Below, piece after piece: positions 1,950 to 6,836 of a stretch of 6,836 nt of DNA. The translations under genes were made by a program, and so were the position numbers. The notes below the pieces were generated by a model that saw only the letters and a list, made by a program, of their open reading frames with translations, made no database searches and was not told where the DNA came from. Numbering within the stretch: the stretch's first letter is position 1; each line of letters opens with the position of its first letter. Source of the DNA: a virus; IMG/VR virus record IMGVR_UViG_3300029338_000118. One strand, given 5' to 3'.

Positions 1950-3134
1950 ATGGATTGGGTTTCTCCTGTTTTAGGTGCTGGCGCGACTATTGCGTCAGCC
2001 CTAATTGGTGGTTCTTCTAAAGATAGCTCTTTGGCTGGTTCTTATATACCACCTAATAATAATAAAGTTACTTGGAAAGATGGACGTTTAGCGTATTATG
2101 ATCCTACAACAAACGAGACTTTTGATTATATGGATAATGCCACTAAGTCAAAAATTCCTAAGTCTGTTTATTGGTCAATTATGATGAATCAAGCAAACCA
2201 GATGTTTTCGGAAAAGATGTGGAATGCACAGAATGCTTATAATACACCTTTTAATCAGGCTCAACGTTTAAAGGCTGCTGGTCTTAATCCTTATTTAGCT
2301 ATGCAAAATGATGGTTCTATCGGTATGGCTGAATCTGCTTCTACTCCTTCCGGCTCTGCCGATATGTCTTCAGGTTCTGTAGATGCTTCTTTGGCTGCTT
2401 CACGAAGTCAATTAATTGGCTCTATGGGCAATATTTTGCAGTCTGCTTTTTCTAATATTAATCAACAGAAAATTGCTTCTGCACAAGCTGATAAATTGCA
2501 GTCTGAAACAGATTATCAGAATATTGTGAATAAATTTGCTATTACTGATATGATTACTAAGTTGCAACAACGTATGGCTGAAACGCATGACACTGAAGCT
2601 AGGAAACGTTATCAGGATATTATTAACTATGTTACCGATTCTTCTAAGGAATATTTTGTAGAGAAAAATCATTCTGATGCAGTAAATTCTTTAAATACTA
2701 CTCTTCTTCAAGAAGATGAGCATAATTTAAATGTTGCACGTTTGCGTTCTCAAAAGCTTGAGGGTGATTTGCTTGCTGTCAATTTATCTTGGCTTCCTAA
2801 AGAAAAAGCTGCCGGCATTGCTCAGGCTTATGCTCAGGCTTATGCTTCCACCTCTTCTGCAAAAGCTTCTGAACAAGCTGCTTTGAATTATGCTGCTGAT
2901 ACCTACGGCAAACAGTTTGACAATAAAATGCGTGATGAGTTACGTGCTGTTATTAAGAAGTCTGAACAGTCTCGTTATGATTCTCAACGTACTTCTCTTG
3001 ACGTTCTTAAAGAACAGCTTAGAGAAGCTAGAAAAAATAATAATACTTATGAAATTCGCCTTATTGGTGATATGATAGGTAAAATAACTGGTGGCTTCCA
3101 AAATTACGCTGTTGGTAAACATATGCTTAAATAG
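1950..3134 (+). CDS. VP2: Minor capsid / DNA pilot protein VP2 (functional analogue of phiX174 H).
   Basis: The product is 394 aa. It has a Gly/Ala-rich hydrophobic N-terminus (VSPVLGAGATIASALIGG). It carries the motif FNQAQRLKAAGLNPYLAM, matching the (R/K)xxxAGLNP motif typical of gokusho- and alpavirus VP2. The C-terminal half is long, Q/A/K/E-rich and predicted helical. Its position downstream of VP1 fits. Confidence 0.8.
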   Translation: MDWVSPVLGAGATIASALIGGSSKDSSLAGSYIPPNNNKVTWKDGRLAYYDPTTNETFDYMDNATKSKIPKSVYWSIMMNQANQMFSEKMWNAQNAYNTPFNQAQRLKAAGLNPYLAMQNDGSIGMAESASTPSGSADMSSGSVDASLAASRSQLIGSMGNILQSAFSNINQQKIASAQADKLQSETDYQNIVNKFAITDMITKLQQRMAETHDTEARKRYQDIINYVTDSSKEYFVEKNHSDAVNSLNTTLLQEDEHNLNVARLRSQKLEGDLLAVNLSWLPKEKAAGIAQAYAQAYASTSSAKASEQAALNYAADTYGKQFDNKMRDELRAVIKKSEQSRYDSQRTSLDVLKEQLREARKNNNTYEIRLIGDMIGKITGGFQNYAVGKHMLK

Positions 3135-3164
3135 TTTCTTGTTTTTGATTTTCTTATATCGTTA

Positions 3165-3199
3165 GCCGTTTGTCTACTATTGTAGGCAGACGGCTTTTT
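3165..3199 (+). terminator. Rho-independent terminator ending the long + strand transcription unit.
   Basis: The stem pairs gccgtttgtcta (3165-3176) with taggcagacggc (3183-3194), 12 bp including two G:U wobbles. The loop is ctattg and a TTTTT run follows at 3195-3199. It starts 31 nt after the VP2 stop. Confidence 0.8.
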
Positions 3200-3226
3200 G
3201 CATTTCTGTATTTCCTAATTTACTTA

Positions 3227-3280: not shown

Positions 3281-3648
3281 TTTAAATTAGCTATCTAATC
3301 ATGCAGCTATTAAGCACTTTTTTAGTGCGCTGCCTTTACCTCTTGTTTAATATTGGTTGAAGTGACACCATAAATTTTCTGAACACTTCAACATGCTTGC
3401 CTTTAGTTTAGGCAAGTTTCTTTGTGCGAGTTTCCGCAGAAGGAAACGACAACCCATTATTTTAAACTCTATCCGTTAGGCTTCGATACCTATGAAAAAC
3501 ACTAGCCTTTTTGTTTCTTTTTGGGCAATGCCAAAAAGAAAACCCTCGGTAGAGCCCGCGGAGCGTAAATGCGCTCGGTTCCGCGCGCTAGGCGGAACTC
3601 AGGTTATAGGGCTGAAAGCCCTAATCGCCTATCCTCGCCAACTTTTGA

Positions 3649-3728
3649 GCGCAACATAATAGACGTTGCACAATCCGAAAATTGCACGCATGTGAATTTT
3701 CGTTTGTGTGACGTTTATTATGTTGTGC
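3649..3728 (+). repeat. Long imperfect hairpin: about 36 bp in 80 nt, in three helical segments with an apical 4-nt loop.
   Basis: 3649-3673 pairs with 3704-3728 (25 bp, four of them G:T). An internal loop follows, with t3674 and c3675 opposite t3703. 3676-3683 (cgaaaatt) pairs with 3695-3702 (aattttcg). 3685-3687 (cac) pairs with 3692-3694 (gtg) around the loop gcat. All non-canonical pairs are G:T, which would be C:A mismatches on the - strand. Confidence 0.85.
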
Positions 3729-3733
3729 GTTCG

Positions 3734-3740
3734 GCGAAGC
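3734..3740 (+). repeat. GCGAAGC mini-hairpin motif, copy 1 (context cGGCGAAGC). It sits immediately 3' of the long hairpin.
   Basis: The exact heptamer gcgaagc is at 3734-3740. The same GGCGAAGC octamer recurs at 3845-3852 and 3862-3869. Confidence 0.7.
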
Positions 3741-3752
3741 AGAAAATGGACA

Positions 3753-3805
3753 ATAATTTAGTCGTTTAAATTGCGACGAAGGAGCCTTTTAAACGTCTAA
3801 ATTAT
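3753..3805 (+). repeat. Second long hairpin: an 18-nt inverted repeat with one mismatch and a 17-nt loop.
   Basis: ataatttagtcgtttaaa (3753-3770) pairs with tttaaacgtctaaattat (3788-3805). 17 of 18 positions are complementary, with a t3762/t3796 mismatch. The loop is ttgcgacgaaggagcct. Confidence 0.8.
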
Positions 3806-3843
3806 GTTCATTTTCACATTTCCGTTGGTCGAACACTCAAGCT

Positions 3844-3878
3844 TGGCGAAGCTGTTAAGCTGGCGAAGCCAGTTAAAT
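3844..3878 (+). repeat. Tandem 17/18-nt direct repeat, each unit carrying a GGCGAAGC (GCGAAGC mini-hairpin) core.
   Basis: Unit A is tggcgaagc-t-gttaa-gc (3844-3860) and unit B is tggcgaagc-ca-gttaa-at (3861-3878). The GCGAAGC cores are at 3846-3852 and 3863-3869. Unit B extends to a 5-bp stem, ctggc GAA gccag (3860-3872). Unit A can alternatively fold as agctt/aagct (3840-3853). Confidence 0.75.
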
Positions 3879-3951
3879 TGTTGTTTATGTTAAAGCAATA
3901 CAAATTAATATAAAATTCGTTATTATATTATCGGTTATTATTTTTTTTAAT

Positions 3952-3959
3952 TATCTTTG
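3952..3959 (+). promoter_or_regulatory. Bacteroidota-type -7 promoter element (TAnnTTTG) for the whole + strand gene block.
   Basis: tatctttg at 3952-3959 matches the TAnnTTTG consensus of Bacteroides primary-sigma promoters. A ~55-nt very AT-rich tract precedes it. It lies 57 nt upstream of the first ATG (4016) and is the only such motif between the terminator and the first gene. I found no clean -33 TTTG at the expected spacing. Confidence 0.5.
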
Positions 3960-4015
3960 CGCCAGTTTTGAAGGTTGTTATACCTTATTGTTCTTTGACT
4001 TATTGTTACAAAATT

Positions 4016-4381
4016 ATGACTTCACATTTAACACTTGTTCGTATTAAGACTTCCTCGTCTTTGGATTCTATTCAAGGAGAGTTGTATGTCAATGGTTTGT
4101 TCTTCTGTCATACGATAGAAAGATTAAGTAAGGCAGTCCCTAAGGGCTGCTATCCTCTCGGTGTCTCTTACTCACCGCGTTTTAAGACACGTTTGCCTTA
4201 TTTGTCTGTTCCTCATCGCAAAGGTATTCGCATTCATGCTGGTAATACCGCAAAGGACTCTCAGGGCTGCATTCTTGTCGGTAAGTTAGATGATTGTTTT
4301 ACTATTATTAATTCACGTTTAACGTTGAAAAAACTTCTTTCATCGTCAGACTATTCATTTCATTCAATAATTATTAAGTAG
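4016..4381 (+). CDS. DUF5675-like protein with a YkuD (L,D-transpeptidase)-like His...Ser-x-Gly-Cys motif. It is a candidate cell-wall-acting or lysis enzyme.
   Basis: The product is 121 aa from the ATG at 4016; the track's 3968 start is a TTG inside promoter DNA and is unlikely. The pattern G-x-L-x-x-N-G-x-x-x-C-x-T-I-E ... P-x-G-x-Y-P-L ... S-P-R-F ... V-P-x-R-x-G-I-R-I-H-A-G-N ... S-Q-G-C-I-L-V-G follows the layout I remember for the phage and Bacteroidota DUF5675 family. The segment IHAGN-x(5)-SQGCILV resembles the YkuD catalytic HG-x(n)-S-x-GC[IV] motif. This family assignment is from memory and was not searched. Confidence 0.65.
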   Translation: MTSHLTLVRIKTSSSLDSIQGELYVNGLFFCHTIERLSKAVPKGCYPLGVSYSPRFKTRLPYLSVPHRKGIRIHAGNTAKDSQGCILVGKLDDCFTIINSRLTLKKLLSSSDYSFHSIIIK

Positions 4382-4382
4382 T

Positions 4383-4481
4383 ATGGATAAAAAGACTATT
4401 TGGAATATTGTTTTTAAAGTTGCTATGTATGCACTTGGTTTGCTCACTGGTGTAACTGCTTCTGCTGCCAATTTGCTTTAG
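4383..4481 (+). CDS. 32-aa small membrane peptide, a candidate holin-like or membrane partner of the upstream enzyme. It is too short to appear in the ORF track.
   Basis: The ATG is 1 nt after the previous stop (tagtATG) and its own stop is 18 nt before the Rep ATG. My translation is MDKKTIWNIVFKVAMYALGLLTGVTASAANLL, a charged N-terminus followed by about 20 hydrophobic residues. It fills an otherwise unexplained gap in a tightly packed operon. Confidence 0.45.
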   Translation: MDKKTIWNIVFKVAMYALGLLTGVTASAANLL

Positions 4482-4499: not shown

Positions 4500-6242
4500 A
4501 TGTGTCAGAATCTTCCTTTTACTAAGTGTCTTCACCCTGTTAAGGTGAGGACACTTAGAGGTATTCAACTTGTTAAGTGTGGTAAGTGTCCTGCTTGTGA
4601 AAATGCTTTGCGTTCTGAACTTCGTGCAAAGGTACAATTTGAAGAAAATAATGCACTTGCTTGTTTTTTTATTACAAACACATATTCAGATGCTAATCTT
4701 CCTTTGTTTTGTTTACGTAATGATTTGATTGAAGATAGCGATAAGCAATATAGTAAATCAGGCTCTACTATTGATGATGAGTTTTATCGTTCTTATAAAT
4801 CTATTAATTATACAGATATTTATGGCGATAAGCATACTTTTGAAGGTTCTTTCTCACTTGCTTCTCGTAATGTTGGTTTTTTCCCTTTATCTGAACGCAT
4901 TCAGGAAGATAATTATAATAAAAAACTTGATTCTTGGTGTCTTGATTTAGATAATTCTATTTATTCACGTTGCATTCTTGCACATGCTTCTGATCATTTT
5001 GATAATTTGTTAGCTGCTTATCATTCTCAACTTGAAAGTAATGTTGCTAAGTGTCGTTCTTTAGGTGTTCGAAATCATTCTTTGTCTTGGTATGATTTTG
5101 TTGATAATAATTACCTTGAATTAGATCATTTAAATTGCGTTCCATTGCTTTATTATCCTGATTTGCAGCGTTTTATTAAACGTTTAAGAAAGTTAATTTC
5201 AAAATTATTTCCTTATGAAAAGATACGTTACTACGCTATTGGAGAGTACGGGACAAGTTCCTACCGTCCGCATTGGCATATCTTATTGTTCACCAACTCG
5301 GCTAAAGTTGCCTCTTGGCTGCAACAGTCCTTTTACAAAAATGATGTTCTTTCAACAAAAGATAGAACAATTAACGGCTCCTCTATTTTGGATTCGCTCT
5401 GGAAATATGGTACTTGTACTATTGATAAGACAGATGGCAAAGCTAGTGGATATATTTCAAACTATGTTGTTGGCACTTCTGTGCTCCCAGAGATACTTAC
5501 ACGGCTTGCTCCGCAAAAAACCTTCCACTCTGTTCGATTCGGTTGTCCGTACACGAAGAGTGAGGTCCGTGAGTTCTTTCTTGGACGAAATTATGAACGG
5601 TTCTCAACAATTGAATATGTCTTGCCTACAGACTGCACTTTGCAATCTCGTCCCTTATGGCGGTCGTATTACTCTTTGTTCTTCCCTCAATTTGTTGGAT
5701 TTAACTCTTTGCCTGATGAAGAAAAATATAGAGTACTTACGGTGTATCCCAAACTTGCCTCATGGTTCTTCGAAACTAATGTAAGTGAACTTGCACGTAA
5801 GATTTATTTTCGTTGTATCGCCCCCTATCGAAAAGGTAAGGTACTTGATGAAGTTAGTGCACAAATCGCTAAGTTTTTTGATTGGTTTGATTGGTCTTCT
5901 GGTACTTCTTTAACACTCTCACCACTTCTTGGTGTGCTTTATGCTTCTAAGCGGTTTTTATCCATTTCTTCCGATTTTGGCTTTACCCCTCGACAGTATT
6001 TTGATATATGGCGTGATTTTGTCAATTGGCGTGATTATAAGTGTCTAGTACAACATTTAAATGATTGCCGTACAAATGAAATTTATCTTAATTGTTATTA
6101 TAAAATTTATTCGGGTACTGATATTTCTTTTGATTACTTAAATGATTCTGCTTTATTTAAAACATTCCGTTATGACGCTTTACGTACTAATCAACGGCTT
6201 GTTAAACATAAGGCTTTTGTTGAACAACTTAAAGGTATTTAA
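4500..6242 (+). CDS. VP4: Rolling-circle replication initiation protein VP4 (HUH endonuclease, phiX174 A-like).
   Basis: The product is 580 aa from the ATG at 4500; the track's 4491 start is a TTG. The N-terminal Cys cluster is CLHPVKV...VKCGKCPACENALRSELRAKV. Motif 1 is CFFITNTYSD, of FxTLTY type. Motif 2 (HUH) is YRPHWHILLF. Motif 3 is SGYISNYVVG, with two Tyr spaced YxxxY as in phiX174 A protein. The length fits the long alpavirus-type Rep. Confidence 0.9.
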   Translation: MCQNLPFTKCLHPVKVRTLRGIQLVKCGKCPACENALRSELRAKVQFEENNALACFFITNTYSDANLPLFCLRNDLIEDSDKQYSKSGSTIDDEFYRSYKSINYTDIYGDKHTFEGSFSLASRNVGFFPLSERIQEDNYNKKLDSWCLDLDNSIYSRCILAHASDHFDNLLAAYHSQLESNVAKCRSLGVRNHSLSWYDFVDNNYLELDHLNCVPLLYYPDLQRFIKRLRKLISKLFPYEKIRYYAIGEYGTSSYRPHWHILLFTNSAKVASWLQQSFYKNDVLSTKDRTINGSSILDSLWKYGTCTIDKTDGKASGYISNYVVGTSVLPEILTRLAPQKTFHSVRFGCPYTKSEVREFFLGRNYERFSTIEYVLPTDCTLQSRPLWRSYYSLFFPQFVGFNSLPDEEKYRVLTVYPKLASWFFETNVSELARKIYFRCIAPYRKGKVLDEVSAQIAKFFDWFDWSSGTSLTLSPLLGVLYASKRFLSISSDFGFTPRQYFDIWRDFVNWRDYKCLVQHLNDCRTNEIYLNCYYKIYSGTDISFDYLNDSALFKTFRYDALRTNQRLVKHKAFVEQLKGI

Positions 6243-6248
6243 TTAATT

Positions 6249-6836
6249 ATGTCTAAAGATTCAAATATTATGGGCTTTCATTCTATTAAGAATAAGGCTC
6301 ATTTTAACACATTTAATCTTGACCGCCGTAACTTGTTTACTGCAAAAATTGGTCAATTACTTCCTATCTTTTGTGAAGAGGTCATCCCAGGAGATGAGAT
6401 TCATATTAACATGCAGCATTTTTCTCGTTCTATGCCTGTACAGACTGCTGCTTTTACTCGTCTTAAGGAAAATATACAGTTCTTTTTTGTCCCTTACACT
6501 TCTCTCTGGTCGTTCTATCGTGACGCAATGAAGAATGTGCCTGTTAATCAGGCTGGTTTACCTAATACAATGCGTGCCCAGTCTCCTTTTGATTCTACTC
6601 CTCTTTCTTCTGAACTTCCTAGTTTCTCCTCTTTTGAGATTTATAAATGGTTCAAATATGTTTCTTCTAAGTTTGCTGATTCTGATGTCAACAATGTAGG
6701 TGGTTCTCATGCTCTTCGCCTTACTGAAAGTGCCCGTTTGCTTCAGTCTTTAGGCTATGGCAATTTTACTACCATTTCTAAAATCTATCGTGATGATGAG
6801 AAGAAACCTACTACTCTTATGCTTGACGGTAAATCA
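6249..6836 (+). CDS. VP1: Major capsid protein VP1 (phiX174 F-like), 5' part. It continues through the circular junction into 1..1569, for a full length of 2,019 nt and 672 aa.
   Basis: The ATG at 6249 lies 6 nt after the Rep stop and the frame stays open to the window end; the ORF track misses it because there is no in-window stop. My translation is MSKDSNIMGFHSIKNKAHFNTFNLDRRNLFTAKIGQLLPIFCEEVIPGDEIHINMQHFSRSMPVQTAAFTRLKENIQFFFVPYTSLW... The segment F-x-L-x(4-5)-x-T-x-x-x-G-x-L-x-P-x(5)-V-x-PGD is the characteristic N-terminal signature of Microviridae major capsid proteins. Confidence 0.9.
   Translation, partial: MSKDSNIMGFHSIKNKAHFNTFNLDRRNLFTAKIGQLLPIFCEEVIPGDEIHINMQHFSRSMPVQTAAFTRLKENIQFFFVPYTSLWSFYRDAMKNVPVNQAGLPNTMRAQSPFDSTPLSSELPSFSSFEIYKWFKYVSSKFADSDVNNVGGSHALRLTESARLLQSLGYGNFTTISKIYRDDEKKPTTLMLDGKS
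6699..6836. repeat. Terminal direct repeat, copy 2 (the same sequence as 1..138). It is an assembly or permutation overlap of a circular genome, not a biological repeat.
   Basis: Exact identity to 1..138. It lies inside the capsid ORF, so it cannot be an LTR- or att-type repeat. Confidence 0.95.

Follow-up and report, generated by a model that had tools for sequence, protein, structure and literature searches.

The 6,836-nucleotide stretch of IMG/VR virus record IMGVR_UViG_3300029338_000118 (hereafter, the window) harbors, between a conserved promoter box and the replication initiator gene, two adjacent genes encoding a 121-amino acid (aa) protein of the DUF5675 family and a 32-aa peptide. 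The virus is an Alpavirinae-like microvirus of gut Bacteroidales, in which this locus makes up the module next to the promoter. Sequence comparison identifies the 32-aa peptide as a signal-peptide-only derivative of a 63–74-aa microvirus lipoprotein family, in front of which the DUF5675 gene was inserted. It is tentatively proposed that the two genes form a host-lysis module, in which a wall enzyme devoid of an export signal would act together with a co-translated, membrane-disturbing peptide; we consider this reading possible, if somewhat short of probable. The elements of the locus are given below (position 1 is the first nucleotide of the window).

4016..4381, plus strand: DUF5675 gene, 121 aa, with a match to Pfam DUF5675

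4232..4282, plus strand: putative active-site block IHAGNTAKDSQGCILVG (His74, Cys85), delimited by family conservation

4383..4481, plus strand: gene of the 32-aa putative membrane peptide, conserved in 16/16 clade genomes

A search of 5.8 billion proteins retrieved 461 homologues of the DUF5675 protein. About 64 of them were close (57–94% identity, mostly 120–122 aa) and were encoded on contigs of up to 7.7 kb, often of about 6.5 kb; these microvirus-sized contigs define a microvirus clade. The open reading frame (ORF) at 4383–4481 encodes MDKKTIWNIVFKVAMYALGLLTGVTASAANLL and is separated from the DUF5675 gene by a single nucleotide (TAG-T-ATG). An ORF of 30–34 aa was found directly after DUF5675, at a spacing of −4 to +10 nucleotides, in all the clade genomes that could be read at this position (the window, L001, L002, L038–L040, L042, L044, L052–L054, L057, L133, L208/L209, and L210), and it was retained even where the clade enzymes shared just 60–66% identity. 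The alignment of 12 short forms with a 71-aa Dulem relative showed that M1, K3, K4, I9, K12, V13, Y16-A-L, L20, G23, A26, and S27 were invariant and G19 near-invariant, the small residues of G19xxxG23xxxS27 making up a glycine-zipper-like face. The proportions of synonymous (pS, 0.49) and nonsynonymous (pN, 0.17) differences (pN/pS 0.35) and a nonsynonymous-to-synonymous rate ratio (omega) of about 0.24 indicated purifying selection on the peptide, the constraint being at least as strong as for the DUF5675 protein, whose omega among clade members was about 0.37. The first-pass annotation of this DNA, made from the sequence alone, had put forward a translationally coupled ORF and had made its conservation in relatives, without interruption and with synonymous-biased substitutions, a check of that call; the ORF passed this check.

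The ancestry of the peptide was apparent from profile searches with an alignment headed by the 71-aa relative. Two groups were retrieved, i.e., 31 clusters of 32–36 aa (E values of 1e-18 to 2e-11) and several hundred clusters of 63–80 aa (long forms, 1e-7 to 1e-4), the latter from microvirus-sized contigs and a few large contigs. The reverse search with the long-form profile recovered the 32-aa proteins, and in an exhaustive scan of 1.84 billion representatives the family comprised 118 clusters (50% identity), of which 45 reached E ≤ 1e-10. The long forms (63–74 aa) follow the pattern M-(D)-K-K-E-I-L-x-I-V-I-K-V-L-I-Y-A-L-G-L-...-L-[ST]-[SA]-C, with the lipobox cysteine (L/I/M/V-[ASTC]-[SA]-C) present in 18/18 aligned members, followed by a mature part of about 31–42 residues with an invariant D-T-T...H motif. 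They are predicted to be lipoproteins with a textbook signal peptide. The window peptide aligned with the signal-peptide part alone and ended where the mature protein would start; it contained no cysteine and hence no lipobox. The KVLIYALGL core was invariant in the signal segment of the long forms, and this conservation, far above that of ordinary signal peptides, suggests a function of its own for the segment.

Assignments to described small-protein families were rejected. The peptide showed no NCBIfam match to smalltalk (NF033879) and reached DUF6486 (PF20096) with E = 0.059 and 13.5 bits against the 22.7 required; the long forms scored 13.7–14.6 bits against a smalltalk/DUF6486 cut-off of 24.7, and a resemblance to YgdI/YgdR was likewise sub-threshold. 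Neither the peptide nor any of seven long-form members scanned matched Pfam Lysis_col at E ≤ 1. A chromosomal 32-aa "smalltalk" protein (NF033879, E = 1.4e-14) is encoded at 1554–1652 of contig L059, beside an HU-HIG gene, and also in L060, L061, and L062, and in L059, L060, and L062 the HU-HIG and smalltalk genes lie about 6 kb from an integrated microvirus. The shape of smalltalk (K-rich start, hydrophobic run, ...GVTSCM) resembles that of the viral peptides, at below-threshold level only.

Among the long-form microvirus genomes in IMG/VR, DUF5675 was found in 2/70, both of the Dulem-virus-260 type, where it is placed directly upstream of the long form with a 4-nucleotide overlap; the other 68 were devoid of it. 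The usual gene order is VP1, VP3, VP2, 200–700 non-coding nucleotides, the lipoprotein gene, an ORF of roughly 70–83 aa, and Rep. Long-form genes were also located directly upstream of Rep in microvirus prophages within chromosomal contigs (L059–L062), from which DUF5675 was absent. Judged from this distribution, the operon of related microviruses and prophages ancestrally began with the lipoprotein gene, which was not acquired with the enzyme. Clustering of the mid-size ORFs of the 70 genomes, without a profile scan, found no M15 or other enzyme cluster, so that the small genes are the sole visible candidates for release besides overprinted genes.

Other small ORFs were observed around these genes. 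An extra ORF of 71–78 aa (MTLHKNSYYNVLVSRYGNDDG...), with no family match, separates the peptide from Rep in most clade relatives (2992–3213 in L040, 861–1085 in L042, and also in L052, L053, L054, L057, L044, and L208–L210) and is absent from the window, L001, L002, L038, and L039. Hydrophobic ORFs of 28–30 aa are present beside more distant DUF5675 genes in other microvirus lineages (L050 4212–4298, L051 2055–2147, and L047 5333–5425), being placed upstream in bajarodmic virus 1102, downstream in a gokushovirus, and just before Rep in Dipodfec RodF1_11; they have no established homology to the window peptide.

The insertion of the DUF5675 gene was deduced from the region preceding it, which contains the following elements.

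3164..3205 (hairpin 3164–3195), plus strand: terminator-like hairpin with a 14-bp stem and a T-run, after the VP2 stop at 3134

3951..3963, plus strand: promoter box TTATCTTTGCGCC, 57 nucleotides upstream of the DUF5675 ATG

3990..4010, plus strand: conserved 5′ leader of the DUF5675 gene, GTTCTTTGACTTATTGTTACA

The hairpin closes the upstream transcription unit. The promoter box contains the Bacteroides-type −7 consensus TAnnTTTG at 3952–3959, and the box T-TAT(C/A)TTTGC(A/G)CC was found at −48 to −70 of the DUF5675 ATG in 13/13 DUF5675 microviruses. The promoter call is weighted on this conservation across relatives alone, as TAnnTTTG by itself was not enriched in the window (11 seen vs. 9.5 expected) and the combined −33/−7 pattern, TTTG-N17-23-TAnnTTTG, had no match. 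A sigma-70 scan gave no plus-strand site upstream of 4016, which is expected for a Bacteroidales phage. The hairpin and the conserved box bear out the earlier description of the two genes as the first after the promoter. The 21-nucleotide leader was near-identical in 11/11 clade members (GTTCTTTGACTTATTG(T/A)TACA) while its flanks diverged, and is possibly a translation or regulatory signal.

In relatives without DUF5675, the same box abuts the start codon of the lipoprotein gene, about 12 nucleotides upstream (TTTATCTTTGCACCATG; L064–L073 and others), and TAnnTTTG was present ≤120 nucleotides upstream of the lipoprotein gene in 47/70 long-form genomes, mostly in the −10 to −20 bin. With the box this close to the start codon, the mRNA of the small lipoprotein should have a very short leader or none. 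Since the same box precedes DUF5675 in the window and the lipoprotein ATG in the relatives, DUF5675 with its leader has been inserted between the promoter and the older gene.

The ORF at 3968–4381 includes the ATG at 4016, from which the 121-aa protein is read, and this start is favored because the relatives are 120–122 aa long. The protein matched Pfam DUF5675 (PF18925) at E = 2.4e-24 (85.8 bits vs. a cut-off of 26.7) over profile positions 7–110 of 114, and so did all 55 aligned relatives; it falls in a PHROG without assigned function. It is strongly basic (13.5 kDa, pI 9.8), and charge/hydropathy analysis revealed neither a signal peptide nor an N-terminal hydrophobic segment. The IHAGN...GCILVG motif pointed out in the first-pass annotation was confirmed at residues 73–89 (nucleotides 4232–4282). 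Among 55 diverse members, T33, E35, G44, S53, G70-I-R, H74, G76, N77, G84, and L87-V-G were invariant and C85 was kept in at least 90%, the spacing between His and Cys being 11 residues. As judged by this conservation, the His/Cys pair is the core of the DUF5675 family.

The same annotation had called the protein a YkuD/DUF5675-like enzyme. The DUF5675 half of this call stands with the profile match and the conserved His/Cys pair; the YkuD half found no above-threshold profile. The window protein had no Pfam match to YkuD (PF03734/MEROPS C82), which was matched by 14/55 relatives, all sub-threshold (best E = 0.037). Tlde1_dom (PF10908) was matched by the window protein with 16.7 bits (E = 0.01), under the gathering score of 30.1, and sub-threshold in 28/55 relatives, the match being carried by the His74/Cys85 block; in the best relative, P0065 (23.5 bits, E = 8.1e-5), it covered residues 36–97, i.e., most of the domain. 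The AlphaFold2 models of the window protein and of P0065 (mean predicted local distance difference test scores of 90.2 and 96.0, respectively) each consisted of eight strands and one helix. Comparison of the fold with predicted viral structures (BFVD) gave 11 matches at E ≤ 0.001, of which most, including the ten best (E ≤ 5e-7), had TM scores of 0.75–0.85. Every named match was a DUF5675 protein, and one, from a crAss-like phage, was annotated as L,D-carboxypeptidase/transpeptidase; crAss-like phage homologues carry this annotation or that of a transpeptidase catalytic domain. The canonical YkuD His/Cys motif is spaced longer than 11 residues. A 2026 preprint lists DUF5675 as a "C82-like" lysin candidate with some similarity to C82 peptidases, yet significant differences, and Tlde1a itself is described as an L,D-transpeptidase fold with structural alterations, its activity being the trimming of tetrapeptide stems (PMC9638812). 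In our reading, DUF5675 is a putative Cys/His enzyme whose active-site block is like that of L,D-carboxy/transpeptidases at the motif level only, and YkuD-fold membership is not established.

The nearest non-microvirus homologues (34–57% identity) were almost all found in assemblies of Prevotella, Bacteroides, Paludibacteraceae, and Muribaculaceae, which indicates a Bacteroidales host. The first-pass annotation had taken less T3-biased codon usage (T3, thymine at the third codon position) as a sign of horizontal acquisition. T3 of the DUF5675 gene (0.479) did differ from that of the capsid gene (0.644; p = 8e-4), but not significantly from that of VP2, VP3, or Rep (p = 0.12–0.44; overall chi-square p = 0.11), and codon usage was rejected as weak evidence of transfer, VP1 being the only gene to differ significantly. 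The acquisition itself is better supported by distribution, which marks the DUF5675 gene as an accessory acquisition drawn from the genes circulating among Bacteroidales phages and mobile elements.

The lysis module proposed here would operate as follows. The small basic DUF5675 enzyme would be made in the cytoplasm and would cut or edit peptidoglycan stem peptides, providing the wall-degrading component at release. The 32-aa peptide, co-translated with it, would most likely reside in the inner membrane as one helix presenting the G19xxxG23xxxS27 face and may disturb the membrane as a minimal holin or the stable signal peptide of colicin release does; this disturbance would open the wall to the enzyme. 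As the enzyme has no export signal, a breach of the inner membrane would be needed, for which the coupled peptide is the obvious candidate: its segment is unusually conserved, persists alone under selection, and has a glycine-zipper-like face that would suit the packing of helices. The gene neighborhoods of tailed phages are consistent with such a role. DUF5675 directly follows a holin gene on two tailed-phage contigs (L005, phrog_175, 2e-19; L010, phrog_2359, 2.4e-5), a weak holin match precedes it in L008, and a further holin (phrog_14914) was found among the tailed-phage neighbors. Small membrane proteins made up 16/43 of the adjacent same-strand ORFs and 63/486 of those elsewhere, an enrichment with an odds ratio of 4.0 (p = 1.4e-4), and DUF5675 likewise adjoins small membrane proteins in cultured Vibrio phages. 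The peptidase and amidase genes of other microviruses, taken up below, also count in favor of a lysis role.

Several observations weigh against a lysis module. With respect to the peptide, the highest Kyte-Doolittle mean over 19 residues (1.60, residues 9–27) was borderline for a membrane helix, no holin family in Pfam or PHROGs matched at E ≤ 1, and the C-terminus (...SAANLL) is uncharged, lacking the charged tail typical of holins. With respect to the enzyme, Foldseek with both models retrieved no PDB structure at E ≤ 0.001, YkuD/Tlde1a being absent from the top 50; PDB sequence searches with the protein and two family profiles gave no match; and hhalign of the family profile against the single E. 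coli LdtB sequence returned a probability of 0.3%. The neighborhoods in Bacteroidales chromosomes also differ. Here DUF5675 typically comes last, behind a 740–865-aa DUF3987/BT4734-like primase-helicase-like protein; DUF3987 accounted for 26/47 neighboring ORFs scanned in islands whose DUF5675 shares 40–57% identity, and small membrane neighbors were depleted (2/60). These closest bacterial homologues in the scan were taken at tblastn E ≤ 1e-3, the microvirus clade itself not being among them. On one such island in a Prevotella isolate, DUF5675 was accompanied by an EcoRII system as well as by DUF3127, with no lysis or capsid genes visible, and in the crAss-like phage cr10_1 the gene stands among structural-region genes, 3.2 kb from a putative holin. 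Lastly, the lipoprotein family occurs without the enzyme in the great majority of its genomes (68/70); the adjacency of peptide and enzyme may reflect a permissive insertion site and not a partnership, and the association of the short peptide with DUF5675 is confined to one clade and so counts as one evolutionary event. The context evidence for a lysis role of DUF5675 is thus mixed. The endolysin-holin layout suggested in the first-pass annotation recurs where DUF5675 follows a holin in some tailed phages and fails in the closest bacterial homologues, which follow the primase/helicase-like gene, and its view of the peptide as a holin-type partner of the enzyme did not hold, the peptide being a truncated copy of an older gene mostly found without DUF5675.

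Two observations on the wider distribution of the domain are added. The assemblies L136–L204, from Prevotella and other Bacteroidales, contain a recurrent trio of an ORF of about 150 aa, the 740–865-aa DUF3987/BT4734-like_N protein, and DUF5675, with several copies per genome in some strains (MN60, HUN156); the trio has the appearance of small elements of one family that integrate into the chromosome. The DUF5675 domain is also located at the ends of 868–1251-aa phage proteins (A0A8S5VTR0, A0A1L7N1E2, and A0A7H0XAI4; e.g., Ralstonia phage RP31), which points, for some tailed phages, to a role associated with the virion.

The pairing of DUF5675 and peptide has to be weighed against other explanations. 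It is somewhat unlikely that the enzyme is the lysin while the peptide or lipoprotein has an unrelated ancestral job, such as superinfection exclusion, receptor masking, or a role in Rep expression, at a site open to foreign genes. Such a job would agree with the position of the long form as the first gene after the promoter in relatives and prophages without DUF5675, with the temperate nature of these viruses, which makes exclusion functions plausible, and with the lack of similarity of the peptide to holin families. An exclusion lipoprotein, however, should need its mature domain and lipid anchor, both of which the short form has lost while still evolving at an omega of about 0.24, and the signal-less enzyme would still require a membrane-breaching partner. 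That the 32-aa ORF is a functionless, decaying remnant of the lipoprotein gene is highly improbable: the lipobox cysteine and the entire mature domain are indeed gone, but the frame is open in every readable clade genome, its length is held at 30–34 aa, the coupling spacing is kept, synonymous differences far outnumber nonsynonymous ones, and it is conserved at least as strongly as the enzyme.

Other explanations concern the enzyme. DUF5675 might not serve release at all but the establishment or replication of mobile elements, or envelope remodeling (e.g., a superinfection block), with a virion entry role elsewhere. Its place as the last gene after the primase-helicase-like gene in Bacteroidales islands, two genes upstream of Rep in the window, at the ends of long phage proteins, and in the structural region of cr10_1 at a distance from the putative holin all point in this direction. 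We nevertheless consider it unlikely, given the holin adjacency in several tailed phages and the enrichment of small membrane neighbors there, a Cys/His block like that of peptidoglycan-peptide enzymes, and the expectation that a free 13.5-kDa protein would hardly be packaged in a T=1 microvirus capsid. Small phages are well known to lyse their hosts with a single protein that blocks the making of wall precursors (phiX174 E, Qbeta A2, and the Sgl of phage M). DUF5675 could by a comparable, enzymatic route act on cytoplasmic precursors, e.g., by trimming UDP-MurNAc-peptide or lipid II stems, and bring about holin-free lysis in the manner of a "protein antibiotic," the peptide being irrelevant. 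The lack of a signal peptide and the likeness of the motif to L,D-carboxypeptidases would fit, but the holin adjacency in tailed phages better suits a classical endolysin, and this route is very unlikely.

A wider version of the lysis-module proposal rests on analogy. Through colicin release lipoproteins, cytoplasmic proteins that have no signal leave the cell, and the signal peptides of these lipoproteins are in themselves toxic to the membrane. Stable signal peptides of this kind have been described (PMC5727409). Like the colicin lysis lipoproteins, the long-form relatives are tiny lipoproteins with unusually conserved signal peptides; unlike them, they show no sequence similarity to that group, the window peptide has no lipobox, and the host belongs to Bacteroidales and not to the enterobacteria. 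The likeness is thus a functional analogy, not homology. By this analogy, the tiny lipoprotein could be the lysis gene of Alpavirinae-like microviruses, acting through a membrane-active signal segment, and in the window clade it would have been reduced and paired with DUF5675, whose uncharacterized Cys/His fold would attack stem peptides; we regard this as doubtful. The small lipoprotein family is nonetheless, in our ranking, a more interesting lead than the enzyme.

Peptidoglycan enzymes have been reported in microviruses before. Roux et al. (2012; PMC3394797) described accessory genes for M15_3 peptidases, each a "possible endolysin," in Alpavirinae and Gokushovirinae, and Kirchberger et al. 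(2022; PMC9239249) reported peptidase/amidase genes associated with lysis in Families 2, 7, and 14 of the microviruses. The earlier annotation had called the layout of an enzyme plus a very small membrane protein unusual for a single-stranded DNA phage of this size; an enzyme in a microvirus is not without precedent. The DUF5675 gene resembles the M15_3 genes as a horizontally acquired gene for a small, signal-less candidate wall enzyme; M15_3 genes of several alpaviruses even occupy the same VP2–VP4 interval, in 5/11 cases beside a small ORF of no known function. It differs in that the Cys/His DUF5675 is unrelated to the M15_3 zinc metallopeptidase and in that its small neighbor can be traced to an older lipoprotein family. 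A peptidoglycan enzyme in a microvirus is already known; DUF5675 as such an enzyme would be new. No description of the small lipoprotein family and its signal-peptide-only derivative, or of DUF5675 in a wall-enzyme role, was found in the searchable literature.

Comparison with other systems likewise showed partial correspondence. DUF5675 shares with Tlde1a/YkuD (MEROPS C82; PMC9638812) the conserved His...Gly-Cys block and many sub-threshold Pfam matches, but has no above-threshold profile, Foldseek match, export signal, or secretion-system context. The locus corresponds to tailed-phage holin-endolysin cassettes in that a signal-less enzyme adjoins, in translational coupling, a small putative membrane protein, and departs from them in that the 32-aa partner is older than the enzyme in this lineage and belongs to a mostly enzyme-free family. 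As in single-gene lysis by phiX174 protein E, a very small phage encodes a small, putatively membrane-anchored product that might act alone; unlike protein E, the peptide shows no similarity to it, is not overprinted, and has an enzyme gene attached.

The window holds the entire circular genome of the microvirus. Positions 1–138 are repeated at 6699–6836, a 138-nucleotide terminal duplication from circular assembly that leaves a circle of 6698 nucleotides, and VP1 translated around the wrap over-counts 46 residues owing to this duplication. The remaining features are as follows.

Spanning the window ends and finishing at 1569: VP1, the capsid gene

1572–1946: scaffold-like ORF, 124 aa

1950–3134: pilot protein VP2, with its stop at 3134

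Between the pilot protein and DUF5675 genes: an ORF-free stretch of 880 nucleotides

4500..6242, plus strand: Rep/VP4 replication initiator (Pfam REP_ORF2-G2P 2.7e-15, phrog_942 2.8e-31)

Rep is the next gene after the peptide gene, in the same orientation, and its ATG at 4500 was placed by reference to relatives. The closest GenBank record is an UNVERIFIED pig-gut microvirus (MT135341.1, L044) with a VP1 identity of 80%, all other records being at ≤35%. Only the capsid gene is annotated in it, and its DUF5675 frame is broken in two at 782–1113, probably by a sequencing or assembly frameshift. The non-coding stretch 3300–3900, which separates the VP2 terminator from the promoter box, folds very strongly when single-stranded (folding free energy of −126 kcal/mol vs. 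−73 ± 4.5 for shuffles, z = −11.7), with a GC content of 0.43–0.46 vs. about 0.37 elsewhere, long imperfect hairpins at 3649–3728 and 3744–3814, and a perfect 11-bp hairpin at 3514–3541. It may represent a complementary-strand origin or an integration-related site. The sole Rfam matches, mir-32 (3659–3718) and mir-320 (2980–3043), were far under the gathering scores and were regarded as spurious.

For the release of gokusho- and alpa-type microviruses, which rank with the commonest phages in the mammalian gut, the locus offers two concrete candidates short enough to be synthesized. DUF5675 is a candidate Cys/His enzyme family that occurs in microviruses, in tailed phages including crAss-like ones, and on Bacteroidales islands, with a confidently predicted fold that has no solved relative. 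If neither gene causes lysis, the enzyme would be just another microvirus accessory gene. If either does, it would provide a handle on phage release from Bacteroidales and possibly a new class of antibacterial enzymes.

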